Shown here piece by piece: positions 18,506 through 60,440 of a DNA stretch of 64,000 bases; within the stretch, counting starts at the first letter, position 1, and every line of letters begins with the position of its first letter. Where the stretch lies: NCBI RefSeq assembly GCF_041248615.1, contig NZ_CP158425.1. One strand, given 5' to 3'. The notes beneath the pieces were generated by a model. That model searched no databases and was not told the origin of the DNA. It saw only the letters and a list, made by a program, of their open reading frames with translations. The DNA is from Escherichia coli (GTDB taxonomy: Bacteria; Pseudomonadota; Gammaproteobacteria; Enterobacterales; Enterobacteriaceae). The translations under genes and the position numbers were made by a program.

Positions 18506-19392
18506 TGCCACTGCTGGATAAGCTGCGTGAGCAGTACGGGGTCGGACCGCTATGCAGCGAACTGCATATTGCCCCGTCAACGTATTACCACTGTCAGCAA
18601 CAGCGACATCATCCGGATAAACGCAGTGCCCGTGCGCAGCGCGATGACTGGCTGAAGAAAGAGATACAGCGCGTATACGATGAAAATCACAAGGTATACG
18701 GTGTGCGTAAAGTCTGGCGTCAGTTGTTACGGGAAGGTATCAGAGTGGCCAGATGCACTGTGGCACGTCTCATGGCGGTTATGGGACTTGCCGGTGTTCT
18801 CCGGGGTAAAAAGGTCCGTACGACCATCAGCCGGAAAGCCGTTGCCGCAGGCGACCGCGTAAACCGTCAGTTCGTGGCAGAACGACCTGACCAGCTGTGG
18901 GTGGCTGATTTTACTTACGTCAGCACATGGCGGGGCTTCGTCTATGTGGCGTTCATCATTGATGTGTTTGCCGGATACATCGTGGGGTGGCGGGTCTCAT
19001 CGTCCATGGAAACGACATTCGTGCTGGATGCACTGGAGCAGGCGTTATGGGCCCGTCGACCGTCCGGCACGGTCCATCACAGTGATAAAGGTTCTCAGTA
19101 TGTATCGCTGGCCTACACACAGCGGCTTAAGGAAGCCGGATTACTGGCATCAACAGGAAGTACAGGCGACTCGTATGACAACGCGATGGCGGAGAGCATC
19201 AATGGTCTTTACAAAGCGGAGGTAATACACCGTAAGAGCTGGAAAAACCGTGCAGAAGTGGAACTGGCCACACTCACGTGGGTGGACTGGTATAACAATC
19301 GACGATTGCTGGAAAGGCTGGGCCATACTCCTCCGGCAGAAGCAGAAAAAGCTTATTATGCTTCCATCGGAAACGATGATCTGGCAGCCTGA
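18502..19392 (+). CDS. IS3-family transposase OrfB (DDE integrase core)
   Basis: 296 aa with the VADFTYV...HSDKGSQY...[18 protein letters not shown] signature. Probably expressed as an OrfAB fusion by -1 frameshifting (inferred from IS3-family biology). Confidence 0.9.
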
Positions 19393-19776
19393 GTTCACAG
19401 ATAAAACACTCTCCAGGAAACCCGGGGCGGTTCATCCAGTTTTGGATTCATCCCCTGGGCGTAAGCCACAGTATCGCGGGATGCGGGAGAGCCCTCAAGC
19501 TCAGCATTAGTGATCAGGTATACACCATGACTGTGCGCGAGAAGCACTTTTGGCACCAGATGTGTGCTGGCAATTTTTGAGGATGAGGGAAAGAAAACCC
19601 TACCAGCTTTACGCGCCTCTTCTTCAGTCTGTCCCTCAGCGTTAAGGAGGGCTCCCCCCGGATAGCATGCCGGGTCATAGATCTGATCTGCGGTGACCGA
19701 AAACGTTTTTGCGGTGCGAATTTCTTCGATCAGTTTATTAATATCCGCCATTTCAAATACGAGAGTGGTCACAGGC

Positions 19777-20088
19777 TTACTCTCCCTCTTCAGTGGACAA
19801 CATCAGATACTTTGTTGCCAGCAGAAGCTCTCCCACATCCTTGAGGGACAATTCAGCTTTGCCTTCTACGGCAAGCTGCAAGCGCTGTCGAATTGCATGA
19901 ACAGAATCTGAAGATAAAGATGCCATTTTGCGCAAAACGGCATTAGCCTTTTCTACAGCAGGATACAGAATTTCTGAGTTGGTATTATCTTCGTCATTAT
20001 CAAAGATAATTTCAGAATCCATATTGATGTTATCTTCAAGCCAGCTTGAAAGCACTTCAAGTAATGACATCACCTTTTCAATTTGCAT
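19777..20088 (-). CDS. Acidic hypothetical protein
   Basis: A GAGGAGG RBS precedes the ATG at 20088 (MQIEKV...). The track ORF start at 20124 lacks an RBS. Confidence 0.5.
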   Translation of the reverse strand: MQIEKVMSLLEVLSSWLEDNINMDSEIIFDNDEDNTNSEILYPAVEKANAVLRKMASLSSDSVHAIRQRLQLAVEGKAELSLKDVGELLLATKYLMLSTEEGE

Positions 20089-20137
20089 ATCGCCTCCTCT
20101 GTTAATGTGAAACAAATATAACAAAGTGGCTTACCCG

Positions 20138-20151
20138 GCTAATAACCTGAG
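20138..20151 (-). promoter_or_regulatory. Conserved promoter-like motif (CTCAGGTTATTAGC)
   Basis: About 50 nt upstream of the ATG at 20088. Confidence 0.45.
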
Positions 20152-20388
20152 CAGAAAGTTTTCGCACTTTGTTTGAAAACAACTTTTCTGCTCAGGTTAA
20201 TGTTAAAGTCGCTGTGTAAAAGATAAAGGGCACTAAAGATGATTTAAGCATCAAACAGACTAAATCGGATTCCGTCTTTTATATCGCTTTTAAAATAGAA
20301 TGAATGAAATATAAATTTAGCGTTTATGATTGAACGCTGTAGAGGTTGATTTATCCAGTGATATTCAGTTTGGGGCCTTAAAAAGGTT

Positions 20389-20619
20389 TTATTTTGGATT
20401 CGAATTACAAAGGGAGCACCGACATTTTTCTGGGGGCTCCCGCAGAGAAAAAGCGGTGAGGCTATGAAGACGAAGAGGAGGTATTCGACGAAATACTGTA
20501 TGGCCACAGGAGAGCTTCAGCACCCATATCCTGCCGTCTCGCTCGCCTGTAATGATTTCAACATGTACAACGTCATACCACGTAGTTGTATTTCTCACTT
20601 TGTTTATGCTTCCTGACAC
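20389..20619 (-). CDS. Small Cys-containing hypothetical protein
   Basis: GTG start inside the end of the upstream gene, with no RBS. CGH...CRCSLC cysteines suggest a zinc ribbon. Confidence 0.35.
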   Translation of the reverse strand: MSGSINKVRNTTTWYDVVHVEIITGERDGRIWVLKLSCGHTVFRRIPPLRLHSLTAFSLREPPEKCRCSLCNSNPK

Positions 20620-20924
20620 CGTGTGAACGCAATCTTCGTCTGGATGCGTTCATAGATGGAAAACTGCCTTTCAATGGAACCGGCATTAGACAGTAATTCA
20701 TGAAGCTCAGCAGAGTCTGTATCGGGAACGATAGCTACAGAAACTCCATATCTCCGTCCAATTTTGATTAGGTGCGCAAGCTGTTCTTTTTCGGATTCTG
20801 TGAGCATTGCCAGATCTCTTCCGGACACCTGCTCTATAAACGAACCAAGGTTTTTGGGAAAAAAGGGTTCGGCATCAGAGTTATGTGCTGGGCGCGTCTG
20901 CGGCTTATCGAAGCTATTGGGCAT
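20604..20924 (-). CDS. Hypothetical protein
   Basis: 106-aa ORF. Operator palindrome at 21074-21088 upstream. Confidence 0.45.
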   Translation of the reverse strand: MPNSFDKPQTRPAHNSDAEPFFPKNLGSFIEQVSGRDLAMLTESEKEQLAHLIKIGRRYGVSVAIVPDTDSAELHELLSNAGSIERQFSIYERIQTKIAFTRCQEA

Positions 20925-35745: not shown

Positions 35746-38136
35746 TTATGTTTGAGGGAATTCTATAGCAAATGTGGCCGTGCCAGATTGACCACTTACA
35801 GCGGGAGTAACGGGATACGTGCGCTCTTCACCATTACCAAGATCCAGTGACAGCGATTTAGTTTCACCAGGCTGGACCGTAACTCCGGCAACCGTAACGC
35901 CGAACTGGGCATTTTTCTGAACAGTCAGGGTTCCGTTTAACTGTCCGGTAATGATAGAACCGTCCTGACGCCGCAACACACTGGTTCGGATGATGGCCAG
36001 CGGCGTGTTGTCCGTTGCTTTCAGTGCTACGGCTGTGGCCAGCGTCTTGAGATTATCCAGCATAATCAGATTCGCAGGCTGGTAGGTAAAATTAAGCGTT
36101 TTAGTGGTCCGGTTACCTGATTCGTCAATAGCCAGTGCCTCCAGATGATACATCTGTCCCGATTCGTCAGTGTTGGGGAAGATTCTGGGGTATTCCGGAA
36201 TAAAGACATCCTTGGATAACGGCGTGAATGCCAGGGTGACCTTTTCAGAGTTAGGTCCACCAGCGAGCTGAAGCGATGTCAGGGAAGCATCCCCAGAGGC
36301 ATCAGTAACGCTTATGCGAAGGTTCTCAAGCCCTTTAACCAGTTTTCCTTCTGCGTCTGCGCCATTAAAACTGAACGCGATAACCGGAAGCGTTGAGTCA
36401 ATTTTCAGCGGTGCATTAAGCGTTTTGGTTCCGGTGTTTCCAACAAGATCCGTGGCAGAGACGCTAACCACCGTATAATCCCCGTCCGGTAGACCAGCGT
36501 ATGAGAAGGTGGCGTTTTTGGTTTTATAATCGCTTTCACTGACGGTCACAGGCTTCAGCGTGAAAGGTTCCCCCCGGGCATTTTTAAGGGTGGCTTCGAA
36601 AACTTTGGTATCCCAGTAGCTGATGTTCCAGGCGTTGACGCGATCATTATCGGTGGCCGTCATAGTGATTGTCTTGGAGGCCTTGTTTACCTGAGCGACA
36701 TTAACCACCGGTGGGTTGTTATCCCAGATAACCGTAAAATTACCAGCAAGCGCATCGAATATGCTGTCACCATCTTTTCCCGAGTAAAGGTGCAGATACT
36801 CAAATCCTTTGTCACTGGTGTAGTTGAAGTTAACCGTCATCTCGCATGAACTTTGTCCGATAGGTATAGTGCAGAACCAGGCTGCATTTTTTACCGTTCT
36901 GAACTTTTGCACGTATGGTCGGGGTTCAGCGGTTACCTTTATGCGGCTAATGGTGGCGGTTTTAACGCTGATTGAGGCCTGAGTTAACCACTCACTGGTA
37001 TCACTCCGGTACATCTCTTTAGCCACTATCTTCGGGGCTATTTCCATCGCCGGGGCTGGAGTGAAGTTGAGGGAGTTATGATGAATTCGTCTTACTCCTC
37101 CTGCCAGAGTCTGGAATTCATGATAAGTATCCCCCACATTGGGATATATGTATTTGAAAGTATAAATATTATAAGTGCTATCGGACGTCTGGAAATTCGA
37201 GTCCGCCCAGCCATATTTGGAACCGTTAACAGCAGTAAAGTCACTTTTTTTCCTTAATACCCGTACGGAAATAGGGTTCTGGAAGACGGTCATGCCAGAC
37301 TGATAAGTGACCCATGATCCGGTAGTGGCGTCCTGCACCTGGATGATATCGTCAGGCTTAACCCGATCAATTACGCTTCGGCGGCTTAGTTCGATCCTGT
37401 TTCCCGCTTTGTCATAAAGGTAGATCCCCACTTTATATTCAGAGCGGTTTTCCGGTGCCAGGGCATTGCTGCTTGCGTCGGCGACTTGAACGGTTACGCT
37501 ACCTTCCACTGTATTAATTTCCGCTGGCTTTTTACGCTCCACTCCAGCGGCATCGGTTATGAAATATTCAGCATTAGCAAGCCCGGAACCTTTATCACTC
37601 AGTCCATTAAAGACCAGTGCCTGGACGCTGGCGTACTGCATACCGGCTGGTACTGAAGTGAAGATCGCTTCGCTGCCAAAGTTCCACCCGTTTCTCGTAT
37701 AACTTATGGTACCCGTTGCCGGAGGCGTTCGGTCAATTGCAAGCGGGTAATCCTGCCGGGAGACCTCCTTCCCTTGCAAGTCGGTAATCACCTCTCTGAG
37801 GGTGAAGCTATCTTCTCCCATCGCTGGTACGGTCAGAGTCTTGCCGTAATAATCAAAGCCTGTCGAAGATGTGGTACGGTCATCTACGGTAACCAGGCTG
37901 CTTTTCGTGCTCCAGATGAGGCTCCCGTCACTTTTCAGCAGACTGAGCGTAATATAACGGTCCAGACCGGAAATAACGGCAACGTCAAAGCTCGTTACCG
38001 GATTAATCCATACGGATGCAGGCGATACGGTCTTTTTAACGTTCAGGGTATCTTTAAAGCTGAATTCTGCGATTTCAGCGGAAGCTCCTGCGCTGAAACC
38101 TGCAAATGCAATAAGCAGGGCTAGTTTGATTTTCAT
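35746..38136 (-). CDS. Secreted large beta-rich (Ig-like repeat?) protein, paralog A
   Basis: AGGAGA RBS before the ATG at 38136. Signal peptide MKIKLALLIAFAGFSAGASA. Shares GLDRY, YYGK.L.PA.GE, GLENLRI, GGP and EYPRIFPN blocks with 43689-46109 and 50384-52840. Confidence 0.7.
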   Translation of the reverse strand: MKIKLALLIAFAGFSAGASAEIAEFSFKDTLNVKKTVSPASVWINPVTSFDVAVISGLDRYITLSLLKSDGSLIWSTKSSLVTVDDRTTSSTGFDYYGKTLTVPAMGEDSFTLREVITDLQGKEVSRQDYPLAIDRTPPATGTISYTRNGWNFGSEAIFTSVPAGMQYASVQALVFNGLSDKGSGLANAEYFITDAAGVERKKPAEINTVEGSVTVQVADASSNALAPENRSEYKVGIYLYDKAGNRIELSRRSVIDRVKPDDIIQVQDATTGSWVTYQSGMTVFQNPISVRVLRKKSDFTAVNGSKYGWADSNFQTSDSTYNIYTFKYIYPNVGDTYHEFQTLAGGVRRIHHNSLNFTPAPAMEIAPKIVAKEMYRSDTSEWLTQASISVKTATISRIKVTAEPRPYVQKFRTVKNAAWFCTIPIGQSSCEMTVNFNYTSDKGFEYLHLYSGKDGDSIFDALAGNFTVIWDNNPPVVNVAQVNKASKTITMTATDNDRVNAWNISYWDTKVFEATLKNARGEPFTLKPVTVSESDYKTKNATFSYAGLPDGDYTVVSVSATDLVGNTGTKTLNAPLKIDSTLPVIAFSFNGADAEGKLVKGLENLRISVTDASGDASLTSLQLAGGPNSEKVTLAFTPLSKDVFIPEYPRIFPNTDESGQMYHLEALAIDESGNRTTKTLNFTYQPANLIMLDNLKTLATAVALKATDNTPLAIIRTSVLRRQDGSIITGQLNGTLTVQKNAQFGVTVAGVTVQPGETKSLSLDLGNGEERTYPVTPAVSGQSGTATFAIEFPQT

Positions 38137-38269
38137 GGGTTGTCTCCTGATCAGGTTCCCCATGATACTTTTTCAGTGTTCGAGATCTTTTCGGGAAAAT
38201 AGCTAATTTTAATGTTTTTCTTTTCTGCCCGGCGGGACTTGTTTTGTTTACGTAAATGCAAAAATACAA

Positions 38270-38284: not shown

Positions 38285-38539
38285 GATAGGGTTAAAATTA
38301 GGTTTTCCCAATTTCCAGAAGCAAGCGAAAGCAGAACTAGCTTAATAGCCATTAAAAACGCCATGCCTATTGATAAATAAAGCTCATTACATTTAATGAT
38401 TAGAGCATTTAAAACTGAATTAGCGAAAGAATTTCGGTTAGCTTTTTATTGCATGAGTGAAACAGTATTAATAATCCGGAGCCATCAGAACGTACTCTAA
38501 AGACTCCGGTATACAGATATCTTGCCAGTAAAAATGGCC

Positions 38540-38791
38540 TTACTCCTCATCATCCCCCAGCGCTTTTTTGATGGCGCGGCGGCGGGCTGCATCACCTACA
38601 CGATATCCGACTGAATATACGTCATTCAACCGGCGCAGAATAAGATTTATTTCCTCATCCTGAATGTAGGCAGGTAAACACAGAACTACGTCGCCATCTT
38701 CATCATAGACTCGAACAACTTCCTTCTGCCCATCTCGCTCGCGAATAATCTGGACATGCTGAACCCTGGTGTAATCTGGGATTACGCTCAT
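38540..38791 (-). CDS. Small hypothetical protein
   Basis: 83-aa ORF, co-directional. Confidence 0.5.
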   Translation of the reverse strand: MSVIPDYTRVQHVQIIRERDGQKEVVRVYDEDGDVVLCLPAYIQDEEINLILRRLNDVYSVGYRVGDAARRRAIKKALGDDEE

Positions 38792-38823
38792 TTTAAATAT
38801 CTCTCTTTAATTGTTGTTACCAG

Positions 38824-39027
38824 TTAGCTATAAGCCGGTTTATTCAGGTACTCAGTGTTCTGCACAGCAATCGCCTGTTCGTGGATCATTAACACTGCTG
38901 GGCGGGCTTTAAGGCGCTTGCTGGTGAGAAAACGCTTCACTTCTTTAAGTTCGCTGCCAGCCGACAGCATATTGAAGACATGCTGTTTGAGACTGTTGTT
39001 ATTTTTGGCCACTTGTTTCTCCATCAT
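38824..39027 (-). CDS. Small hypothetical protein
   Basis: The start ATG at 39027/39024 overlaps the end of the upstream gene. No strong RBS. Confidence 0.35.
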   Translation of the reverse strand: MMEKQVAKNNNSLKQHVFNMLSAGSELKEVKRFLTSKRLKARPAVLMIHEQAIAVQNTEYLNKPAYS

Positions 39028-43688: not shown

Positions 43689-46109
43689 ATGAAACATCTC
43701 GCTTTTATTACTGCTGTAGCCGGACTCGGTATGTCTGTTCAGGCCCCAGCTCAGATATATGAATCGGCCTTTAAGGACACGAACGGTATTGAGATCCACG
43801 CCCCGTCTTCTCGTCTTATGCTTAATCCGGCATCACCGGTAACTTTGACACTTATTTCAGGTCTTGATCGTTTCGTTAATGTCAAAGTCACGAAAGACAC
43901 TGGAACTGTCATTCTTAATACTACGACTACACGGACGGGTGTATCAGACCGACTAACAGCTGCTGACGGTAGTGAGTTCTACGGCAAAAAAGTAACTTTG
44001 CCTGCTTTGGGTGAAGGCAAATTTGTCGTTCAGATAAACGTGTTAGATCTCAATCAGAAGCCTGTAGCGACCTATAACTATAACTGGCTAATTGATGTCA
44101 CCCCTCCAGCGGCAAATGCTCTTACCGCTAATACTGGTTCTGGCTCTACCGCTGGTGACGTGTGGAAGCTTGGATTAGAGGCAACGGGGCAGTATGACTT
44201 CACCTCTTCGGGCGTAAGTGATGCAAATGGTATTGATAAGGGCCTAATATATATTTACAGGCAGGACGGTAGCCTCTACAGCACTACACAGATGCAGTAT
44301 GACGTATCCGGCCAAAAGATGTACCACACTTACTCTAAGAATTCAGTTAAGGGAACCGGAATACCAGACAGCAACCTGGATGAAGACTTTACTGCAAAAG
44401 TTGTTATCTTCGATAACGCAGGTAATAGCCGAACGCTGCCAACTCAAAAATTTCGCTACGACAACACGCTGGGTGAGATGACACTGTGGGCCGTTCATGA
44501 TCCAAATACGTCTTCCAGCGTCGTACCCGGGGTTTCTAATTATCCGGCTTACAAAGCCGGTATGGTCGTTAACGAAAACCCTATTCGATTAGTCTACCGG
44601 ATCCCAAAATCTAACTACCGTGCTTATTCAGAAGGTGGGCTTCAGTTCATCAATCAATATTCCGCCCCCAAAGAGATAGCTGTAGACAGCACTTATGCTT
44701 ATGTTGAAATGACTCTTCCCTATGGCTCAATTAATGGGGATATGGCTCGTATGGCGAACTTTGGCCAGTGGGGAGGGTATTATCCGTCATACAGCCTCGT
44801 TCTAAACCCATCTGCAAACCAAACGCCTGCATTTGCGGGTACCTGGGTAGATTTCCTCGATGATAAGGGGAACTGGGTTAAGTGGAAGGATTTTGAGAGT
44901 GTGGCTTCATCACGACTGCCAATTAAAATTTCCCGACTTCGTTTTAACGTTGAAGCCCGGCCCTTTGCACAGGAGATCGGCGGTAAGGCGACCTGCACCA
45001 TTCCGGCAGGAAAAACCTCGTGTGAAGCGCCTGAGACGTTTGATATGGCCTTGGGTACCCAGGGCTACAATAGAATCCTTTACTTCGTTCGCAGCATCAG
45101 CAATCCCATTTTGCGGTCTGAGCAATGGATTATGACACGCTGGAACAATAAACAACTGCCGGTAATAAACTCGATATCATATGACGAGACTAACAAGCAG
45201 CTGGATGTACTGGCGTCACTTGAAGGCGATGGTAACTGGTTCGACTCGGTCTCATTGAGGGAATTTTATCTTTCCGATAAGAACACCGGTACCCGGATGT
45301 CACCAACAGGCGTAATCAAATCTCGTATCTCAGGTAACTACACGATTGCTTATGATTTATCCCGTCAGTCTGAAGGAAAATACAACGTTGAGGTCAACAT
45401 CAGGGACTTCTTCCAGAACCAGACCAATAAAACTTTCGGAGAAATTGCTCTGGATAACACTCCTCCGACAGTGGCCATAACATTCGACGGAAAGCCGGTA
45501 AAAGACGATACGGTAGTGTACGGCCTGGAGAACCTCAGGATCGCTCTGGCAGATAATCTGACAACCCCGAGGATAACCCGTCTTCAGCTCGTAGGTGGCC
45601 CCACAGCTGATAACGTTGAGCTTACGTGGTCACCGGCAGGCAAAGATACATACATGCCTGAGTATCCGAGGCTGTTCCCAAATTTCGAACCATCTGAAAA
45701 TTATTCAATTAGCGTAACAGTTGCCGATAGTCAGTCGAATACCAAAACCTATACTCAGAAGTTCAGTTATCTACCGAATAACCTTGTGCAGTTACATAAT
45801 CTACGCACATTGTCGGTCAGTTCACCTCTCAAAACGACAGATGGCGTACCACTTGCGTACCTGTCCACTAACGTTCTGCGTAAGACAAATGGAGAAATTG
45901 CTAAAGGGGTCCAGAACGCAACGCTGACTGTGCGGAAGGATGCAGCCTTCGGTATTAAATTTAATGGGGCACAGGCGGCTCCAGGCGAGTCAGTTGAGGT
46001 GCAAATAGATATGGGCCAGGGGGATAATCTTCTGTTACCCGTTTATCCTTCCGAAAATGGGAAAGTTGGCACCTCAGAATTCATGATTCAGATCGACGAG
46101 TTGAAGTAA
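43689..46109 (+). CDS. Secreted large beta-rich (Ig-like repeat?) protein, paralog B
   Basis: AGGGGA RBS. Signal peptide MKHLAFITAVAGLGMSVQAPA. Long collinear similarity to 50384-52840, for example RFNVEARPFAQEIGGKATCTIPAGKTSC against RFNVQARPYDQKITGGATCSIPAGSTTC. Confidence 0.7.
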   Translation: MKHLAFITAVAGLGMSVQAPAQIYESAFKDTNGIEIHAPSSRLMLNPASPVTLTLISGLDRFVNVKVTKDTGTVILNTTTTRTGVSDRLTAADGSEFYGKKVTLPALGEGKFVVQINVLDLNQKPVATYNYNWLIDVTPPAANALTANTGSGSTAGDVWKLGLEATGQYDFTSSGVSDANGIDKGLIYIYRQDGSLYSTTQMQYDVSGQKMYHTYSKNSVKGTGIPDSNLDEDFTAKVVIFDNAGNSRTLPTQKFRYDNTLGEMTLWAVHDPNTSSSVVPGVSNYPAYKAGMVVNENPIRLVYRIPKSNYRAYSEGGLQFINQYSAPKEIAVDSTYAYVEMTLPYGSINGDMARMANFGQWGGYYPSYSLVLNPSANQTPAFAGTWVDFLDDKGNWVKWKDFESVASSRLPIKISRLRFNVEARPFAQEIGGKATCTIPAGKTSCEAPETFDMALGTQGYNRILYFVRSISNPILRSEQWIMTRWNNKQLPVINSISYDETNKQLDVLASLEGDGNWFDSVSLREFYLSDKNTGTRMSPTGVIKSRISGNYTIAYDLSRQSEGKYNVEVNIRDFFQNQTNKTFGEIALDNTPPTVAITFDGKPVKDDTVVYGLENLRIALADNLTTPRITRLQLVGGPTADNVELTWSPAGKDTYMPEYPRLFPNFEPSENYSISVTVADSQSNTKTYTQKFSYLPNNLVQLHNLRTLSVSSPLKTTDGVPLAYLSTNVLRKTNGEIAKGVQNATLTVRKDAAFGIKFNGAQAAPGESVEVQIDMGQGDNLLLPVYPSENGKVGTSEFMIQIDELK

Positions 46110-46149: not shown

Positions 46150-46210
46150 CTGCCCTCCTCGACTCCGATCAGCCAGTACGTCTTCAGAGATTCGCAAGGA
46201 AGAACCGAAA

Positions 46211-46225
46211 GAAAAGTTACTTTAA
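46211..46225. promoter_or_regulatory. Palindromic operator-like site, copy 10 (at the edge of the iteron array)
   Basis: GAAAAGTTACTTTAA. Confidence 0.45.
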
Positions 46226-46276
46226 TCGTACGTTTCCAGCGATGCTTTCAAAAGACAATGCATACTCGTTGATTAC

Positions 46277-48112
46277 GACAATGGGAGTGAGTGTCGAACC
46301 CCTTGAGTAAGGATACTTGGTAAATATACAGCCCCGGGGATTCTCTTCCTTCAACCGGGGATGACAACGGGAGTGAGTCCGGCAACTCACACCTGTTGTC
46401 ACTTCTCTGACATATCGTCATACGAGCTTACTCAAGCGCATCCACAAAGATGGGATCGTTTTGAATCTAAACTGGTACTGGTTAGCCAGTCACTTGCATC
46501 TACTCCCCCGTCGATATTTAAGTGACAATTGTAGTGATCTGCAATACTGGTGTCTCAGAAACACTGACGACGGTAGAGACTCAATACCCTAACCCCTGAC
46601 AACAGAAGTGAGCTTAGAGGTGTTACGCTGCTGTCACCTAATGCTTGGGAATTGCCTGACTCACAACCATTGTCATCCGGAGCTACTGATTAACGTTGAA
46701 CCGCTGGACTTTAATGACAGTGGTAGTGATGGATAGGCTCATTTCCATTGTCGTCATTTTATCGGACAAGCCTCTTCGTCCTACAGGTTTAAGCTGACAA
46801 TGGTAGTGATTGGATGATCTCACTACTGTTGTCACTCAGTTCTTTGAGCGGACCCTTCCCTCGGTTGGTCGGCATTAACAACGGTAGTGACTCGATTGGC
46901 TCACTGCCATTGTCATCGTGTAAATGACGTACCTTATCAGCTCAGCTGAAAGCAATGACAACGGTAGTGACTCTAATTGCTCACTGCCATTGTCGTCGTG
47001 TCTATTGAGAGCCTTATCAGTGCACCTGAAAAGCAATGACAACGGTAGTGATTCTAATGGCTCACTACCGTTGTCACCGTGTGTATTGAGAGGATGGTCC
47101 ACCTAACTGGACGTATATGACAATGGTAGTGACTTTAATAGCTCACTACCATTGTCGGTGTGTGAATTGAGAGGATGAGCAGCTCAGCTGTACGTCCATG
47201 ACAATGGTAATGACTTAATGAGCTCACTACCGTTGTCACCCTGTTAATTAAGAGGCTCATCTGCTCTTCTGGAAGGCTATGACAACGGAAGTGACTTGCT
47301 GGGCTCACTGCCATTGTCGCCGTATGAATTGAGAGGATCATCCGCTCTTCTGGATGGCAATGACAACGGTAATGACTTAATAGGCTCACTACCATTGTCA
47401 CCCTGTGAATTGAGAGGATGATCTGCTTAACCAGACGGCCATGACAACGGTAGTGACTTTCTGGGCTCAATACCGTTGTCACCCTGTGAGTTAAGAGGTT
47501 GACCCGCTCTACTGGACGGCCATGACAACGGTAGTCACTTTCTGGGCTCACTACCGTTGTCACCCTGTGAGTTAAGAGGTTGACCCGCTCTACTGGACGG
47601 CCATGACAACGGTAGTCACTTTCTGGGCTCACTACCGTTGTCGCCATATAGAATGAGAGGAGCATCAGCTCAACTGAACGGCAATGACTACAGTAATGAG
47701 CTGGATGAAGCATAACCATTGACATCTGGCCCAACCGGAAGCCGTATTCGCCAATCCAATCGAGATTCACAATGGCCGTGACTCGCCGCATTAAGTTCCG
47801 GTGTCCTCCCAAAGCTGAACGCACACTCGGAGGACAATGACAATGCCAGTAAGGTACACATCATTACCATTGTCACTATAGCTACCAGAGAAGCCGGGAT
47901 TTGAATGTCGATGGTAGTGAGTGGGTCAACTCACTGCCATTGTCACCCCGTTACGATATTTTCCGTTGGATGTACTGGCCAATGAAGTAAAGCGTAGAAA
48001 CCGGGTGTTAACAGGTGACTCAGGAGAAAGCGTTGAATTTCGCAATCTCGATCTACATAGGGTGGTAGAGAACAATGACAACGGTAATGACTTTTGACTC
48101 ATTACCGTTGAC
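46277..48112. repeat. Array of about 20 inverted iteron pairs (RepA-site palindromes) downstream of repA
   Basis: Each unit is GACAAYGGTAGTGA, 8-10 nt, then TCACTRCCRTTGTC. The arm sequence equals the direct iterons at 49496-49593 and 49919-50017. Confidence 0.85.
46796..47685. repeat. Core of the array: 11 tandem units of 80-81 bp
   Basis: Left arms start at 46796, 46877, 46957, 47038, 47119, 47200, 47281, 47362, 47443, 47524 and 47605. The spacers between pairs are also conserved. Confidence 0.9.
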
Positions 48113-48187
48113 GTGAAAGAGCGGGCTGGGACTAACGAAAATCGAAGAAGTAATTTAGCACCCGGAGCCTAAACCGCCGGGTTAACT

Positions 48188-49276
48188 TTAGCTGGCGTTG
48201 CTGTTCTTTTTCTGGCTTCGAAGACTACGAATATAGCGCAGTTCTTCAGCGGTTAAATCATGGACGGTAAGAACATCATCGCCGTCAATCGGGTCAGCTG
48301 GTGGGCATAACTCACCTTCTAAAACAGAAGACCCTGAGTTCTCTTCTTCATCTTCAACCACTTCTAAAGGAGGCTGAGTATTGTTCAAATTCAGATCGGG
48401 ATCCCGCTTATGAATCTGGAAGTATACTTTTCCGTCTTTCTTAATTTCGGTGTACTTGAGGTATCCTATCGATGCCAACTCTTCAAGAGCCTTTCTCACG
48501 GTAGCATTCTGACTATTTGCTCGTGTTTTGAGGTTCAGACGATTTTTCAGCCGAGTAAGGGATATCGGTATAGGATTTGGCGGTAATGACTCTATGAACG
48601 TATAGAGAGCCTGGGCGCTTTCCTTCTTGGCCAACTCCTTAATTGCCTTCAGCTGCATCAAAACCTTATGATCGTATTGATAGAGCTCGAAAATCTTAGG
48701 ATCAACCTGAAGGACAACCTGATCTGATTCCGGGTCTAACAGGGCAGACTGTACCAGATGCGTTGTATAGACTTTGGACGAGTTATTACTGGTGAACGAC
48801 AAGGTAACGGATGCTAACCTGCGTAAGGAGGCGTCTATACGTTTTCTGGACGCTGTAGATGAGCGATAATTTTCAGGCGTACATAGCTTGAGGAATTCAG
48901 TGAATTTTAAGCTTATCGTGTCATTGTTAATCGGATGATTGGCATAGGTTCGAATGATGCCCATCCACGTCTTAAAATCTACTGACATATTAAGACGCTC
49001 ACCGACAATTGAAATATTGGTGAACCCCTCGCTCTCCATTAAAGAGAGCGTCTGTAACTCTTTCGTTGCGTCAAAGCCAACCGTTTTATATTCCCGATTT
49101 TGACGCCCCACACTCTTTGGTGATGGGACGAACAGCCCGAGCCGCATCAAAGCAATAGACTGCACCGTACGGTTGCTGTTAGGACGCAAAATGATGTCTT
49201 TACCTGATTCTTTCTCTCTAACAGAGAAAGCCCTGGTGACCAGGTCCTGCTGCTCAGTATCTTTCTCTTTAGTCAT
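48188..49276 (-). CDS. repA: Replication initiator RepA, P1/RepFIB type, with an acidic C-terminal extension
   Basis: [28 protein letters not shown] and [31 protein letters not shown] align with the P1 RepA blocks [28 protein letters not shown] and [31 protein letters not shown] (from memory). Iterons flank the gene on both sides. Confidence 0.85.
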   Translation of the reverse strand: [362 protein letters not shown]

Positions 49277-49339
49277 AATTAGTTATCACTGAATGTGTAA
49301 ACAGATTGGTGAATAGTAAGCCCCAGCGAACTCTATGTC

Positions 49340-49490
49340 ACTGGATGGATCATTGTGATGATCCATATCTGTGCATAAGTTCTACCTAAAAAAACGACTC
49401 CACTCATTAAAACTTGGCAAAAACTCTTTGCATACAATGACCTGCAACTCTTATCAACAACGGATCAGATCAAGTTAAAAAGATCTAATG
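49340..49490. promoter_or_regulatory. GATC-rich repA promoter/origin-proximal region
   Basis: GATC at 49348, 49360, 49463, 49468 and 49482. Palindrome GGATCAT-TGTG-ATGATCC at 49347-49364. AT-rich. Confidence 0.5.
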
Positions 49491-49495
49491 AAAAG

Positions 49496-49593
49496 TCACT
49501 ACTATTGTCGCTCTGATCACTACTGATGTCAAAAAACTCATTACCAACGTTATAATAATCACTACTAATGTCAAAATAATCACTACTGTTGTC
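49496..49593. repeat. Origin iteron set 1: five direct repeats at exact 21-bp spacing
   Basis: TCACTACTATTGTC (49496), TCACTACTGATGTC (49517), TCATTACCAACGTT (49538), TCACTACTAATGTC (49559), TCACTACTGTTGTC (49580). Confidence 0.85.
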
Positions 49594-49796
49594 ACTGATC
49601 ACGTCTCAGGCCTTGTGCCGTCTGGCCTGGAGGCAGCGGGGATCTCTTTTGATCTATCAGGAACACTAAGGTACTAATTATTGGAACTACCTTGTGGAAA
49701 ATGGGGATAAATAAATGCTTAGTTCTTATACAGGTCTCAACTTGCCTCCCTGATAAAAACTGTCGTCAAAGCTAAATCACAGCCACAGGCATTTTC

Positions 49797-49805
49797 GGTG
49801 GATAA
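49797..49805. promoter_or_regulatory. DnaA-box-like sequence
   Basis: GGTGGATAA is the reverse complement of TTATCCACC, an 8/9 match to TTATCCACA. It lies between the two iteron sets. Confidence 0.3.
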
Positions 49806-49918
49806 ATTTTTGAGAAATAGAAGCATACATGCAGACTCGTGTCGCAAGTAATTGAAAGTAATGATTTATTTAAATAATGCGAGTCACCTTACCTCACAGT
49901 GGAAGTTTAAGTCTAACC

Positions 49919-50017
49919 TCACTACCATTGTCACTTAAAATCATTACCAACGTCGAAATAGTCTCTACCATTGTCTTTTAAGTCACTCCCGTTGTCACTT
50001 ATGTCGCTACTGTTGTC
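49919..50017. repeat. Origin iteron set 2: five direct repeats at 21-22-bp spacing
   Basis: TCACTACCATTGTC (49919), TCATTACCAACGTC (49941), TCTCTACCATTGTC (49962), TCACTCCCGTTGTC (49983), TCGCTACTGTTGTC (50004). Confidence 0.85.
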
Positions 50018-50245
50018 AGTGACAATGCTCCAGCCCAGTAACCATGCGGCCTACAGCGTACCGGGATCTTCTTTGTACTCTCTGGCACCTTTGGGATCAT
50101 TTATTGGATCTACATGAGGGATAAAATCTTTTGACGATTTCGTAGTGCAGTTATACCAGCGACTTAGCAAGACAAAAGCTGCAATTTAGTGACGAGTTAC
50201 TAGTCTGCCCAACAAGAGCAATGCAGAGAAGATATGTGGTGAAAT

Positions 50246-50279
50246 GACCATGGTAGTGAGTCTAATCACTACCATGGTC
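50246..50279. repeat. Isolated inverted iteron pair
   Basis: GACCATGGTAGTGA (50246-50259), 6 nt, then TCACTACCATGGTC (50266-50279). Confidence 0.8.
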
Positions 50280-50383: not shown

Positions 50384-52840
50384 TTATTTTAATTCTTCAA
50401 TGTTAATCATGAACTCAGATCTGCCAGTAAGGCCGGATACAGCAGGGAAAATAGGAAAGCTACGGCTGTCCCCGAGCCCCAAATCCAGTTGAAGCTCTTT
50501 GCTTTCACCTGGCATCGCAGAAACGCCATTTACAGTCACGCCGAATGCAGCGTCCTTACGGACAGTAAGCACTGCGTCCTGAAGCCCTGTAGCGATTGAA
50601 CCATCCTTTTTACGCAGCTGGCTGGCATACAGAACAGCCAGAGCAGTATTGTCAGATGTTTTGAGAGAAGCATTGACAGCTAAGGTTTTCAGATTCTCTA
50701 GCCTGACGAGATTGTTTGGAAGGTAGTTAAATTCGACTGAGCTTTCTTTAACGTTGTTCATCTCATCTTTGGCCTGAACTGTGAGAGTGTATGTTTCGCC
50801 TTCATTAAGAGACGGAAAGATCTTGGGATAATTAGGTGCATACAGGTTGTTTCCCAGATTCACCCAAGACAATTCCACCGCATCAGAAACAGGGCCACCG
50901 CGAAGAGTCATACGGCTTAAGGATGGTTTAGTTAGAGCATCGGTGAGCTGTATACGGACGTTCTCCAGCCCATATACTGTTACGTTTTTGCTGATCGGTT
51001 TTCCTTCGTAGCTAATACTTACAGATGGTGCTGTATTATCAACGACAACTGTTTGATAAGGGAGGTTACCGGTATTGTTGAATGTATCTTGGGCATTAAT
51101 CACCACGTTATAACTGCCTTCTGGTACCTCTTTCATGTTGAACTCATACGTGTAGTTCCCAGACGCCATATTTCTACCTGTTTGTTTGCCGGTTACGCTT
51201 ATTTCTGCGTTGTTACGGTTTTTATCTGACAACCAAACTCGATTTACATAAACATGGTCGAAATATGAACCATCTCCAGGTTGATTCACGTAAACCTGGA
51301 GAATGTTGGTGGTTTCATTGTAATCAAATCCAGTGACGGAGGGACCCAGTGTATGCCAGGCTATATTCTCCCATATAGGGGCAAAGAAGGTTGCTTCGGT
51401 GGTTGACCTTACTTCATAGCCACTATGAAGATAACCGGTAGTGCCATTTATAATATCCTGGGGCAAAGAGACGGTACAGGTTGTTGAGCCAGCTGGAATA
51501 CTGCATGTTGCTCCGCCAGTGATTTTTTGATCATATGGCCTGGCCTGTACATTGAATCGGATATTAGTAAGTTTTATAGGCATATCAGATGCCTTGAACA
51601 GGTTCCAGTTTACGCTGTTGAACCATGTTCCATCAGCCTTTTGTCGTTCTATGGGTGAACTTCCCCAAGCCGGACTCTTTACAGAGGCAGGATCCCAGTT
51701 GAGCCAGCTGGCATACTGACCAAGATCTCCTCCAGACCATTGATATGTATTCACAGGTCTATAGTAGTTTCCATCTAAGGCACCCTGTGGCAGCTTAACT
51801 TCCACGTAGACATAGGTGGCATCTTCGGAAAGGACCTGTACTCCGCCATAGTTATTGGTAATGCTCATGCCACCATTTCGATATGGCTTCCAGTTAGTTC
51901 TTGGGATACGTATAACCAACTTGTAGGGGTTTTCCAGCACTGTAAGGCCTCGTTTAAACGGGACGTATCCCGAAGAAATGCCGGGTACAACACTGGTGCT
52001 TACACGTGAGTCATGAACTGCAAATGGCGTAAATTCTCCCATTTGATCGTCATATAAAAACCGCTGGGGAGGAATGTTAAGCGTATTTCCTGCCAGGTCC
52101 GTAACGATGAAATTGAAGGTGAATTCTTCATCAAGATCACTTGAGGGCATGCCAGCCTGGGTGTTCATATCTTTAATCCACGGATAGAACGCACGTTTAT
52201 TGGCTGTGTCATAACTCAGGTTATTGTCGGAGACCACAGAACCATTACTTCGTTTAATGACAAGACGGATCTTGTCAATTCCACTAGCATCCTCAATACC
52301 GTCTGCAAATATAGAAAACTGGCCACTACCGCCTCGGCCCAACTCCCAAAGTGGCCCAGAAAGTACCATGTCGTAACCTGCGTTTTGACTCGGATAAATA
52401 CTCTTATAGCGTGGAGGAGTTGTATCAACGATGAAATGATAAGTAGATGTGCTCACTACAGTCTGGCGAATATCCAGAGTTTCATTGACTACAGTAAAGG
52501 TCCCTTCTCCGAGCGCCGGTAGAACCATATCCTTTCCATAGTATTCTGTTCCATCGGCAGCAACGATACGATCTGCAACGCTCGTTTTGGTCGAGACGGA
52601 GGAATACATAACCTTTTTATCGCTGTCTCGTGTGACCGTCACTCGCTCGTACCGATCAAGACCCGATATCAAGTTCAGAGTCAAAACACCAGCGGGATTA
52701 AGATATGTTTGTGTTGCAGGTTTGATATTCCGAACAGCCTTATTGGTATCTGTAAATGAGTAGCTAAATACCTGAGCATGTGCCGAAGATACAGTAGCAA
52801 GGGCAGTTGCAACCATGCAGCCAATTAGAGTTTTACGCAT
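50384..52840 (-). CDS. Secreted large beta-rich (Ig-like repeat?) protein, paralog C
   Basis: GGAG RBS. Signal peptide MRKTLIGCMVATALATVSSAHA. C-terminus SEFMINIEELK against SEFMIQIDELK in paralog B. Confidence 0.7.
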   Translation of the reverse strand: MRKTLIGCMVATALATVSSAHAQVFSYSFTDTNKAVRNIKPATQTYLNPAGVLTLNLISGLDRYERVTVTRDSDKKVMYSSVSTKTSVADRIVAADGTEYYGKDMVLPALGEGTFTVVNETLDIRQTVVSTSTYHFIVDTTPPRYKSIYPSQNAGYDMVLSGPLWELGRGGSGQFSIFADGIEDASGIDKIRLVIKRSNGSVVSDNNLSYDTANKRAFYPWIKDMNTQAGMPSSDLDEEFTFNFIVTDLAGNTLNIPPQRFLYDDQMGEFTPFAVHDSRVSTSVVPGISSGYVPFKRGLTVLENPYKLVIRIPRTNWKPYRNGGMSITNNYGGVQVLSEDATYVYVEVKLPQGALDGNYYRPVNTYQWSGGDLGQYASWLNWDPASVKSPAWGSSPIERQKADGTWFNSVNWNLFKASDMPIKLTNIRFNVQARPYDQKITGGATCSIPAGSTTCTVSLPQDIINGTTGYLHSGYEVRSTTEATFFAPIWENIAWHTLGPSVTGFDYNETTNILQVYVNQPGDGSYFDHVYVNRVWLSDKNRNNAEISVTGKQTGRNMASGNYTYEFNMKEVPEGSYNVVINAQDTFNNTGNLPYQTVVVDNTAPSVSISYEGKPISKNVTVYGLENVRIQLTDALTKPSLSRMTLRGGPVSDAVELSWVNLGNNLYAPNYPKIFPSLNEGETYTLTVQAKDEMNNVKESSVEFNYLPNNLVRLENLKTLAVNASLKTSDNTALAVLYASQLRKKDGSIATGLQDAVLTVRKDAAFGVTVNGVSAMPGESKELQLDLGLGDSRSFPIFPAVSGLTGRSEFMINIEELK

Positions 52841-55967: not shown

Positions 55968-56294
55968 ATGACTAAAAATACTCGTTTTTCCCCCGAAGTC
56001 CGTCAACGGGCAGTCCGTATGGTTCTGGAAAGTCAGGATGAATATGACTCACAGTGGGCGGCAATTTGTTCCATTGCCCCAAAGATTGGCTGTACGCCGG
56101 AGACTCTGCGTGTCTGGGTTCGCCAGCATGAGCGGGATACCGGGGGCGGTGATGGTGGGCTCACCAGCGCTGAACGTCAGCGTCTGAAAGAGCTGGAACG
56201 TGAAAATCGTGAACTGCGCCGCAGTAACGATATCCTTCGCCAGGCTTCCGCTTATTTTGCGAAGGCGGAGTTCGACCGCCTCTGGAAAAAATGA
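55968..56294 (+). CDS. IS3-family transposase OrfA
   Basis: 108 aa; differs from copy 1 at a few residues ([18 protein letters not shown]). Confidence 0.9.
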
Positions 56295-57181
56295 TGCCAC
56301 TGCTGGATAAGCTGCGTGAGCAGTACGGGGTCGGACCGGTATGCAGCGAACTGCATATTGCCCCGTCAACGTATTACCATTGTCAGCAACAGCGACATCA
56401 TCCGGATAAACGCAGTGCCCGTGCGCAGCACGATGACTGGCTGAAGAGAGAGATACAGCGCGTATACGATGAAAATCATCAGGTGTACGGTGTGCGTAAA
56501 GTCTGGCGTCAGTTGTTACGGGAAGGAATCAGGGTGGCCAGATGTACAGTGGCGCGCCTCATGGCGGTTATGGGACTTGCCGGTGTTCTCCGGGGTAAAA
56601 AGGTCCGTACGACCATCAGCCGGAAAGCCGTTGCCGCAGGCGACCGCGTAAACCGTCAGTTCGTGGCAGAACGACCTGACCAGCTGTGGGTGGCTGATTT
56701 TACTTACGTCAGCACATGGCGGGGCTTCGTCTATGTGGCGTTCATCATTGATGTGTTTGCCGGATACATCGTGGGGTGGCGGGTCTCATCGTCCATGGAA
56801 ACGACATTCGTGCTGGATGCACTGGAGCAGGCGTTATGGGCCCGTCGACCGTCCGGCACGGTCCATCACAGTGATAAAGGTTCTCAGTATGTATCGCTGG
56901 CCTACACACAGCGGCTTAAGGAAGCCGGATTACTGGCATCAACAGGAAGTACAGGCGACTCGTATGACAACGCGATGGCGGAGAGCATCAATGGTCTTTA
57001 CAAAGCGGAGGTAATACACCGTAAGAGCTGGAAAAACCGTGCAGAAGTGGAACTGGCCACACTCACGTGGGTGGACTGGTATAACAATCGACGATTGCTG
57101 GAAAGGCTGGGCCATACTCCTCCGGCAGAAGCAGAAAAAGCTTATTATGCTTCCATCGGAAACGATGATCTGGCAGCCTGA
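56291..57181 (+). CDS. IS3-family transposase OrfB
   Basis: 296 aa, near-identical to copy 1 OrfB. Confidence 0.9.
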
Positions 57182-58094: not shown

Positions 58095-59258
58095 TTATTC
58101 TGCGTCCGGCTGTGGGTCAGTATCCTGATCGGTCTCTTCCCCTGCCTTCTTAGCATTTTTTTTACGTGGGTATTTTGGCTTCTCACCATTAAGTTTTGCC
58201 TGACGATTCTCCGCACGGCGAAGCTGCTTGTTCTCTGATTCTGTGATCTCTTTTGAAAGATTTCTCAACATCTCCAGAGTACTGCGGTTCAACGTAATGT
58301 TGATTTCTTCGTCAGCACTTGAATCTGTCAGCTCCGGCAATTCAATATCCCCCAGTTTCTGTAATAAGCTGGTGGTGATGAGTTTGACGCCTTCTACGGC
58401 TTTTGTGGCAATAACCGGCGGAATCCGTGCTGGCTTGAAGTCTGAAGGTCTGACTCGTACCTGACCATGTTGGGTTTTTTTCACCGTGATGCCATTCGCA
58501 TCGGCCTGCTCAAGTTCTGCGATCATCTTCTTGATACGTGAAATTGCTTCTGTTTCGCCGAGCTCATCGATCAGTGAAAGCACGTTAACATACGAAATAG
58601 CGTCAGCATGAATCCATTTCTTGATAACAACAGAACAGGTTGTCAGGCGGATAAGAGAACTGATGGTCGTCGGGCTTTTATTTTCACGTTGAGCAATTCG
58701 TTCGAGTGACCAGCCAGCAAGAGAATGTAGGCGACGATAGGACTCGCCAAGCGCAACAGGAGAAAGCGCAAGACCACGGTTACCATCAATGGTCGCGAGC
58801 TCACAGCCAATTTCATCTTCTTTAATCTCAACGCAAAGGATTGTGATGTCATGATCTTCATCACATGCCATCATTGCGGCTTTTAAACGGCAGTGCCCCT
58901 GGCGAACAAAAGGTACCCCATCAATGACACGTACTCGGATAGGGTCTACATAGTCACCTCGAATGTAGGCATTCTTGATGTTGTAGATGTGTTCTTCAAC
59001 CTCAGGGAGCTTATAGTAATCGTCACCCATTCCCATTTCGCGGGAGTTGAAGCCTGGCGTGACCTGAATTACTGAAGGGTGGATAGCCCATGCTTTCTGG
59101 TCACTTACTTCAGTACAAAGTTCAGGGTTTGCATCACGGAACTGTTTAAGCCCAGTGACGTAACGGCCTGTGCCAGTAACTACTGAAAAGGCAACATGGG
59201 CCGTTTTAAAGACCTTGTCATTAGCTTGCTGTGTAGGTTCTGTCAGTAAAACACTCAT
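58095..59258 (-). CDS. ParB N-terminal domain (ParB/KorB-like) protein, paralog 2
   Basis: PGFNSREMGMGDDYY and FVRQGHCRLKAAMMA are collinear with paralog 1 (EGFNTRTAGMGELYY, VLRQGACRIRSIAIA). ACGGAG RBS. Confidence 0.6.
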   Translation of the reverse strand: MSVLLTEPTQQANDKVFKTAHVAFSVVTGTGRYVTGLKQFRDANPELCTEVSDQKAWAIHPSVIQVTPGFNSREMGMGDDYYKLPEVEEHIYNIKNAYIRGDYVDPIRVRVIDGVPFVRQGHCRLKAAMMACDEDHDITILCVEIKEDEIGCELATIDGNRGLALSPVALGESYRRLHSLAGWSLERIAQRENKSPTTISSLIRLTTCSVVIKKWIHADAISYVNVLSLIDELGETEAISRIKKMIAELEQADANGITVKKTQHGQVRVRPSDFKPARIPPVIATKAVEGVKLITTSLLQKLGDIELPELTDSSADEEINITLNRSTLEMLRNLSKEITESENKQLRRAENRQAKLNGEKPKYPRKKNAKKAGEETDQDTDPQPDAE

Positions 59259-59547: not shown

Positions 59548-59627
59548 TAAAGCCCGTGGTTAGGTACGATACCAGCACCTAAATTTCTCTCTCAGGTATA
59601 GACACTTTGACTCGACATCTCAGACAC

Positions 59628-60440
59628 ATGCCGATAATCAAATGGGCTGGTGGAAAAACGAAACTGATGCCTTTCATCAGCCATCACTACCCACACGATC
59701 ATAGTTGCCGGTGGGTAGAACCCTTTATAGGCGGTGGTGCCGTTTTTCTGAACATGTTTGCACAAAATGCATTGCTTGCAGATAGCAATCCAGACTTGAT
59801 CAACCTATACAGGACTATTCAAAGACAGAAAACTAACTTTATAAATCAGGTCCAAAACTTGGCGGATAAAACCTTTGTCGAAAAGGACTACTATGAGATG
59901 AGGGACCGTTTCAACAAAACCTGTATTTCTGGTCAATCGCTTCAAAGAGCGGCTTTGTTTTACTCCCTGAATCGCCTGGGCTATAACGGTATGTGCCGCT
60001 ATAACTCAGAAAGAATCTATTCAGTGCCGTGGGGGAAACATACAGAACTGAAGCTTGACCTCAATAAAATAGACTACCTTTCATTTCGTCTTTCAGGTAT
60101 TGAACTGATCACCGCTGGTTTTGAGGAGACTCTGGCCGCAACCGGTGAAGGAGATCAGATTTACTGTGATCCGCCATATGACAAAACAAGCAAAACTAGT
60201 TTTGTCAGTTACGATGGTAAACCGTTCAGCCAAAGCGACCACGTGCTGTTAGCAAATATGCTCGTTGACGCTCACAGAAAAGGCGCTGCTGTTGCGATAT
60301 CAAATAGCCTGACATCATTCACTTTGGGCCTCTATGAAGAGCGTGGATTCGTCATACACAGACTCAGCGCTTACCGATCCGTAGGAAGTAAGCCGAATAC
60401 ACGGAAAACGGAAACAGAAATACTGGCCGTGCTGAAATAG
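59628..60440 (+). CDS. dam: Dam-family (D12 class) DNA adenine methyltransferase
   Basis: IKWAGGKTKL...VEPFIGGGAVFLN...YNGMCRYN...IYCDPPY is collinear with E. coli Dam (LKWAGGK...VEPFVGAGSVFLN...YNGLCRYN...VYCDPPY). The track ORF starts at TTG 59607; the ATG is at 59628. Confidence 0.85.
   Translation: MPIIKWAGGKTKLMPFISHHYPHDHSCRWVEPFIGGGAVFLNMFAQNALLADSNPDLINLYRTIQRQKTNFINQVQNLADKTFVEKDYYEMRDRFNKTCISGQSLQRAALFYSLNRLGYNGMCRYNSERIYSVPWGKHTELKLDLNKIDYLSFRLSGIELITAGFEETLAATGEGDQIYCDPPYDKTSKTSFVSYDGKPFSQSDHVLLANMLVDAHRKGAAVAISNSLTSFTLGLYEERGFVIHRLSAYRSVGSKPNTRKTETEILAVLK

Follow-up and report, generated by a model that had tools for sequence, protein, structure and literature searches.

Head-to-head pairs of the origin iteron make up the long array downstream of repHI2 in IncHI2 plasmids, a probable incA-like control locus

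The RepHI2A replicon of IncHI2 plasmids carries a long field of iterons directly 3' of its initiator gene, repHI2 (also named repHI2A and referred to below as repA). The field was analysed in a stretch of 64,000 nucleotides from Escherichia coli (contig NZ_CP158425.1 of RefSeq assembly GCF_041248615.1), which is called the window and whose numbering is used throughout. The whole downstream field (46277–48112) contains 37 copies of the core that also forms the direct iterons at the origin, most of them joined into 15 clear head-to-head pairs and the remainder being single or degenerate sites. Judged from the comparison of sequences, the unit that is conserved and presumably under selection is a head-to-head pair whose spacer measures about 10 bp, the 81-bp phase of the array being a by-product of tandem duplication. 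The array itself has been described before: it is the long-iteron array that IncHI2 plasmids carry at RepHI2A, at the same locus as in R478. What is added here is modest, namely that the published "long iteron" can be resolved into two ordinary iterons, conserved as a head-to-head pair, and a spacer that is not conserved. The field is probably an enlarged RepA sink and handcuffing locus of the P1 incA type, which most likely keeps the copy number of the plasmid low.

The pairing is evident from the distribution of sites. The whole window was scanned for the pattern GACAACGGTAGTGA with up to three mismatches allowed, which gave 48 core matches in 46277–50279 and only seven weak ones in the other approximately 60 kb. 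The iteron core GACAAYGGTAGTGA occurs at 37 sites in 46200–48187, that is in the gap separating the stop codon of repHI2 from the neighbouring gene, and 30 of these 37 sites belong to the 15 couples of plus/minus neighbours with an offset of 22–24 bp. A pattern composed of the 14 nucleotides, 10 unspecified nucleotides and the reverse complement was matched 24 times when both strands were counted, which corresponds to 12 pairs, with none expected from 100 shuffles. Tandem Repeats Finder (TRF) reported an 81-bp tandem array at 46871–47699 (10.3 copies, 78% matches). The inverted iteron array noticed 3' of repA in a preliminary description of the window is therefore real, and the site scan also bore out that its 14-nucleotide core is the one found in the direct iterons spaced at 21 bp upstream of repA.

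The regular tandem part (46796–47685) consists of 11 units of 80–81 bp, each made up of a 38-bp pair (14 + 10 + 14) and, after it, a 43-bp spacer. Within a pair the right arm begins 24 bp past the left one, and the left arms from 46796 to 47605 follow one another in steps of 80–81 bp; all eleven left-arm positions had been given correctly in the preliminary description. Its estimate of about 20 pairs phased at 81 bp was right with respect to pairing and phase and too high in number, since there are 15 clear pairs, of which 11 are in the 80–81-bp register (13 units when the degenerate edge units at 46716 and 47686 are included). Its spacing of about eight helical turns did not hold either, 81 bp being 7.7 turns and thus no whole number. 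Outside the register are four pairs and about seven single or degenerate sites at irregular spacing. The four are a head-to-head pair at the distal end (46363–46400), a degenerate pair with an offset of 23 bp that borders the regular array on its distal side (46716–46752), a head-to-head pair in the interval from the regular array to repA (47907–47944), and a head-to-head pair with an offset of 22 bp (48077–48112), which also scores as a terminator-like hairpin on the minus strand. With this last pair the field begins 75 bp beyond the repA stop codon; the end of the array as delimited by TRF is 489 bp from the same stop codon.

In 46866–47699 periods of 162 and 243 bp outscore that of 81 bp, from which it follows that blocks of two and three units were duplicated. 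It may be mentioned that 243 bp is near a whole number of helical turns (23.1) and that 81 bp is not. The G+C content of the array is 0.46–0.51. A role as an origin-unwinding element was considered and rejected because the array is not AT-rich.

Within the alignment of the units, the two 14-nucleotide arms are the most invariant columns, and the core reaches to about 16–17 nucleotides (TGACAAYGGTAGTGAC). Conservation among the units is moderate in the 10-nucleotide centre and in the 43-bp spacer. The spacer motif is confined to the array in the 64-kb window. Binding of a second factor to the spacer was rejected as an explanation, since the motif occurs only within the array and is absent from related lineages, as expected of a duplicated passenger sequence. 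The 43-bp spacer is thus regarded as a passenger of the tandem duplication of units or of blocks of two to three units.

What is conserved at larger distance becomes apparent from plasmids of Citrobacter and Kluyvera (L002 and L016, with a RepA of 86% identity) and from a metagenomic contig (L017, with a RepA of 88% identity). L002 and L017 both keep the two upstream sets of 21-bp direct iterons, and both have a gene-free field of 1.3–1.5 kb downstream of repA, with 33 sites in the 86% lineage and 29 in the 88% lineage. In L002 repA and the origin are colinear with the window at 76–78% nucleotide identity, and the downstream match is restricted to the palindromic pairs, which match in either orientation. 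There is no 81-bp period detectable by TRF in L002 or L017: L002 has just a two-copy 145-bp duplication, and L017 has nothing. The spacers in the 86–88% lineages are unrelated to those in the window, and the distance from pair to pair ranges from 34 to 153 bp. The offset within the pairs is nevertheless retained: in L002 ten of eleven head-to-head neighbours are 21–25 bp apart, with a mode of 24 bp, and in L017 the offsets are 20–25 bp. It is because these diverged lineages keep the pair offset without an 81-bp period and without shared spacers that the pair is regarded as the conserved unit. A scan of genome contigs returned close relatives only.

The array is widely distributed. Megablast with 46200–48200 yielded matches in 1127 PLSDB plasmids, many of them 100% identical, from Escherichia, Salmonella, Enterobacter and others; the plasmids are typed IncHI2A and the gene is annotated as repHI2. 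The preliminary description had not recognised the array and had recommended a BLAST search for relatives that carry it. The same array is present in R478, where the Ig-like gene ends at 258187, repHI2 extends from 260265 to 261353, and the 2077-bp gap between them holds an 81-bp array of 10.2 copies (TRF) with 13 pairs by the same paired pattern. R478 and the window thus have the same gene order, gap, array and pairs, with about 2% substitutions between the lineages. In a review, R478 iterons of "up to even 76-bp" are mentioned, citing Page et al., 2001 (PMC4980987), and in another paper twelve iterons of 80–81 bp at about 500 bp from repHI2 are cited from studies on R478 (PMC8490738). The R478 studies behind these citations are those of Page, Whelan and Colleran (2001) and of Gilmour et al. 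(2004). The array in the window agrees with these descriptions in its position in the IncHI2 backbone, in having about 10–12 units of 80–81 bp, and in its distance of about 500 bp from repHI2. The preliminary description had itself named an earlier report of the same array as a finding that would refute it, and by this standard its view of the array as unrecognised fails. In the literature searched, which covers the primary R478 papers through citations, no description of the array or of inverted iterons was found beyond these two sources, and in comparative papers on IncHI2 plasmids repHI2A appears merely as a marker.

Among IncHI2 lineages the number of units is between 8.3 and 11.2 as counted by TRF, and it changes by whole units only. 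Units 47443, 47524 and 47605 are near-identical, and in a four-way alignment of IncHI2 lineages the large pTB601 lineage lacks exactly one of these three, in accordance with the recent expansion proposed in the preliminary description; the window thus has one unit more than the pTB601 lineage by recent duplication. In the same alignment pAMPD03 lacks in addition the unit at 46877, and the pC309/R478-type lineage equals the window in unit number. When 60 of the 1127 PLSDB records were sampled at even intervals, the span was equal to that of the window (2598–2601 bp) in 29, one unit shorter (2520–2521 bp) in 23 and two units shorter (2440 bp) in one. In several IncHI2 plasmids the degenerate distal part of the array is interrupted by the insertion sequence (IS) ISKpn18, for example in NZ_CP093408.1 (4650–5950 and 6285–7187). 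One of the ISKpn18-carrying plasmids has 11.2 regular units, which is the largest count found.

The protein that would be expected to bind these sites is the product of repHI2 (48188–49276, minus strand), RepHI2, which has 362 amino acids. Its identity is approximately 50% to the RepFIB-type RepA, 44% to RepHI1A of R27 and 38% to RepHI1B of R27. RepHI2 alone has no match among the hidden Markov models of Pfam-A or NCBIfam and no sequence match in the PDB, and a profile built from the alignment of its homologues likewise found no solved structure by sequence. The alignment comprises 41 homologues that are 46–89% identical, the R27 proteins being 36–42% identical. The homologues carry the domains Rep3_N, which contains the first winged helix (WH1), and Rep3_C, which contains the second (WH2); Rep3_N is matched by 38 of the 41 and Rep3_C by 26. 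As RepHI2 itself has no Pfam or NCBIfam match, the family assignment was made through these homologues, and RepHI2 is here treated as a two-winged-helix (WH1–WH2) initiator of the iteron type. The missing match reflects a gap in sensitivity, since 38 of the 41 homologues match Rep3_N. RepHI2 also has a partly acidic C-terminal tail of about 70 amino acids, which is absent from RepHI1A and RepHI1B.

On the other side of repA lies the presumed origin. In the sense of repA the order is an isolated pair (50246–50279), the distal iterons, an AT-rich stretch, the proximal iterons, a palindrome and the repA start. The distal and the proximal set each consist of five direct iterons at 21-bp spacing (49919–50018 and 49496–49594, both on the minus strand, the proximal ones in the orientation of repA), and TRF delimits repeats at 49960–50018 and 49516–49594, respectively. 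None of these ten origin iterons is paired head-to-head. The best promoter-like match of the region is located inside the proximal iterons, with the −35 element at 49532 and the −10 element ending at 49504, as is the case in P1 incC. The AT-rich stretch between the two sets (49600–49918, minus strand; G+C content 0.37–0.41) is presumed to be the region of origin opening, and a DnaA-box-like sequence, TTATCCACC (49797–49805), can be read in it together with GATC sites. The RepHI2A replicon is thus organised like those of P1 and RepFIB: the origin, iterons with an embedded promoter, the rep gene, and then the downstream iterons.

Some further elements of this side should be noted. The isolated pair is a perfect head-to-head pair, GACCATGGTAGTGA, with a 6-bp spacer, and it is flanked by the distal iterons on one side and by the stop codon of an Ig-like gene on the other; the 86–88% lineages have instead two sites arranged tail-to-tail past the HNH gene downstream (5259/5285 in L002 and 8283/8309 in L017). 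The proximal iterons are separated from the start of repA by a region with a perfect 22-bp palindrome with two GATC sites, ATGGATCAT-CACA-ATGATCCAT (49345–49366), which could be an operator or a site sensitive to SeqA and Dam. A gene for a Dam-type methylase is found at 59607–60440.

In terms of function, the array is read as belonging to the incA/incC type because of its origin-iteron sequence, its position 3' of the initiator gene and outside the origin, and the family of the initiator. Indeed, the core is shared with the origin iterons, and the field is located 3' of repA, the AT-rich region with the DnaA box being on the other side. With about 37 downstream sites against 10 at the origin, the field would soak up RepHI2. 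Through RepA–RepA contacts it would moreover handcuff the iterons of the origin, in cis with a loop of 1.4–3.7 kb and in trans from one sister plasmid to the other, so that initiation would be shut off once the copy number rises. A cloned array would then be expected to exert strong incompatibility. The fixed offset of 24 bp suggests that two RepA protomers may bind each pair cooperatively across the dyad. From the sequence relationships we infer binding of RepA, the role as a sink and in handcuffing, and the cooperative occupation of the pairs. Of the three possibilities raised in the preliminary description (an oversized RepA sink or handcuffing locus, a cruciform-forming element and a centromere-like site) the first is favoured by the identity with the origin iterons, the 3' position and the retention of the pairs in diverged lineages, its functional part being inferred. 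The sink reading agrees with a second-hand report that cloned R478 repeats showed activity (PMC8490738) and with the finding that in R27 a RepFIA-like incC, a downstream iteron locus, binds its own initiator and matters for stability (PMC4853401).

Several observations weigh against a sink and handcuffing locus and should be thought of when the probability of this reading is assessed. The control function is argued by analogy. The classical control loci, incA of P1 and incC of F, suffice with 5–9 sites, which leaves about 37 paired sites unexplained. The strictly kept offset of 24 bp would equally fit the binding of dimers, which would be a different mechanism. Between two IncHI2 lineages the arms have 2.3% substitutions and the spacers 2.7% (p = 0.75), a comparison of low power. 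And the IS in the distal part of the array is tolerated without obvious harm, in plasmids that have a second replicon as well.

The comparison with known systems gives the reading its context. The incA locus of P1 and incC of F are negative-control clusters of 5–9 iterons 3' of the initiator gene. The RepHI2A field has in common with them, and with RepFIB of P307, the 3' position, the reuse of the origin-iteron sequence and a related initiator; it differs from P1 incA and F incC in that it has about 37 sites, of which 30 are arranged in head-to-head pairs of fixed geometry, and as a sink it would be several times larger than the classical systems. RepFIB-type relatives have 13 downstream iterons (in Pantoea) or 10 (in the IncFIB-typed 107-kb plasmid of Salmonella Typhi), mostly single and in mixed orientation. 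The view that the downstream clusters of RepFIB and P1 replicons are short sets of direct repeats is thus only roughly right, these relatives having 10–13 sites of mixed orientation. The RepHI1A replicon of the IncHI1 plasmid R27, a sister IncHI replicon, contains 13 direct copies of CAAATGCTTTTC at 43–44-bp spacing over about 650 bp 3' of repA (38344–39007). Both RepHI1A of R27 and RepHI2A therefore have expanded, phased arrays 3' of repA, but the core in R27 is a different one and its repeats are direct, with an imperfect inverted partner at most. In R478 the RepHI1A-like replicon (L010, 1–876) has a few scattered copies of the CAAATGCTTTTC type downstream. The 60%-identical relatives, on contigs with phage-like genes for replication and recombination, have no long downstream gap. 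Downstream iteron fields are the rule in the family and are expanded in the IncHI replicons. Only the RepHI2 clade has the paired design. Ten tandem units of 83–84 bp have also been described near a Rep_3-type rep gene in the Acinetobacter III-4a megaplasmids (pALWED1.1), where they are compared with R478; they are on the opposite side of rep, and no sequence similarity is reported (PMC8490738).

An unlikely alternative, and the one among the rivals that has some novelty, is that the pairs bind RepHI2 not as two monomers but as dimers, the form inactive in initiation. The array would then be a device distinct from incA and similar to the family of repeats (FR) of Epstein-Barr virus (EBV), and its possible roles would include storage or sequestration of dimers, pairing of plasmids, tethering in segregation, and pausing of the replication fork. 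The FR of EBV oriP consists of about 20 palindromic EBNA1 sites beside the dyad symmetry (DS) origin and is an element of maintenance and tethering. The likeness is an analogy only: both are long arrays of dyad-symmetric initiator sites apart from the start sites, and protein and host are unrelated. Dimers of Rep_3 initiators such as RepE, pi and RepA of pPS10 bind inverted repeats, which speaks for this explanation, as does the fact that the origin iterons are never paired head-to-head. In addition, the offset is held at 22–25 bp (mode 24) in three lineages with unrelated spacers, which points to a defined geometry of the protein across the dyad. However, the known dimer operators of Rep_3 initiators contain only the WH2 half of the iteron at short spacing, and here each arm is a full iteron of 14–17 nucleotides; the presumptive WH2 halves (TGACAA) are at the outer ends of the pair, about 32 bp apart. 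The offset of the outlying pairs, moreover, varies between 20 and 25 bp, and IncHI plasmids already have two partition systems (PMC5955447). It is judged improbable that the fixed 24-bp pair is the working unit and binds RepHI2 in a dimeric or cooperative mode of which the origin iterons are incapable, which would make the field a distinct device and not a bigger incA. If this were true, the "81-bp iteron" of the literature would be an artefact of duplication that hides the pair as the unit.

The array could also be imagined to be neutral, one control pair having been multiplied by slippage or unequal recombination so that most copies are passengers. Much of what was reported above for the IncHI2 plasmids is compatible with this: neither the 81-bp phase nor the spacers are kept outside IncHI2, whole units are gained and lost, near-identical neighbouring units indicate recent duplication, the arms do not exceed the spacers in conservation at short divergence, and the distal IS insertion is tolerated. 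But 29–37 sites over 1.3–1.8 kb have been kept independently by three lineages, even without a tandem repeat that generates them, the arm columns are the most invariant within the units, and the number of units is held at about 8–11 in more than 1000 plasmids. Neutral amplification accounts for the 81-bp regularity and not for 29–37 paired sites without tandem repeats, and as an explanation of the array it is quite improbable.

Very little probability is given to a centromere, in which an adaptor of the ParB or ParR type and not RepA would occupy the repeats. Long phased repeat arrays are typical of parC and parS sites, and a 387-amino-acid open reading frame (ORF) at a distance of 10 kb (58095–59258, minus strand) has a borderline match to a ParB-type helix-turn-helix (22.7 bits against a cut-off of 22.6). 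The core of the repeats is, however, identical to that of the origin iterons beside repA, and no ParA or ParM gene is present in the annotated neighbourhood of the array. In R27 the par genes adjoin Tra2, and the parAB and parMR loci of IncHI plasmids are located in the Tra2 region (PMC5955447). With the par loci there and no par operon adjacent to the array, the suggestion of a centromere-like site finds no support. As to the 387-amino-acid ORF, it has no partner ParA gene near it, and R27 and R478 contain a gene for 385–387 amino acids in the same neighbourhood, which is annotated as a "DNA-binding protein" in R27 and as a hypothetical protein in R478.

Even less can be said for a structural nucleic-acid element, be it as cruciforms at the DNA level or as transcript hairpins that serve as a terminator, an insulator or a small RNA. 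Folding energies of the perfect units are −14 to −16 kcal/mol, with a z-score of about −9, and the pair at 48077–48112 scores terminator-like just after repA. Against this, the other units fold at just −6 to −8 kcal/mol, and loops of 10 nucleotides disfavour the extrusion of cruciforms. Nor do the arms covary: there are 16 mismatches within pairs and 15.8 ± 1.6 after random re-pairing, which is why the arms are considered to act as individually constrained protein sites. An Rfam search gave nothing but a sub-threshold match to mir-71 (E = 0.66), and neither promoters nor terminators are in excess. The cruciform-forming element of the preliminary description is thus not upheld, the arms varying independently and the hairpins ranging from −16 to −6 kcal/mol.

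That the repeats encode a repetitive protein is hardly conceivable. It is true that a 229-amino-acid ORF (47135–47824, minus strand) is uninterrupted both here and in R478, and that some few records have a hypothetical protein annotated at this place. But 81 bp are 27 codons, so that a stop-free unit stays open on repetition, the ORF begins with GTG, the corresponding region of the 86–88% lineages is devoid of gene calls, and the only Pfam match (FCSD_central, 33.5 bits) has no individually significant stretch and looks like a repeat artefact.

Some observations concern the surroundings of the replicon. Three paralogous Ig-like genes, whose products have about 805–818 amino acids with the domains DUF4165, Big_3_2 and Big_3_3, bracket it (35746–38163, minus strand; 43689–46109, plus strand; 50384–52840, minus strand), and RepHI1B of R27 is likewise bracketed by Ig-like genes (L006). 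In IncHI backbones the Ig-like genes thus seem to be companions of the replicon. A transposase ORF of the IS3 family (296 amino acids; rve and HTH_21) is present in two copies (18502–19392 and 56291–57181, both on the plus strand). Plasmid pM160133_p1, which is 100% identical at the replicon region, carries mcr-1.1/ISApl1 at the equivalent of 17975–20770, where the window has no such ORF; the window is therefore from a different IncHI2 plasmid.

The plasmids of the IncHI2 group, of which RepHI2A is the signature replicon, are major carriers of mcr-1, mcr-9, and genes for carbapenemases and heavy-metal resistance. The whole-unit differences of 81 bp between lineages are a source of artefacts in assembly and typing. 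The head-to-head pair provides a concrete, testable unit for binding studies. If the array is the RepA sink and handcuffing locus proposed here, it is probably the main determinant of the very low copy number and of the incompatibility of IncHI2 plasmids, and it would thus be a sensible target for strategies of curing or interference.

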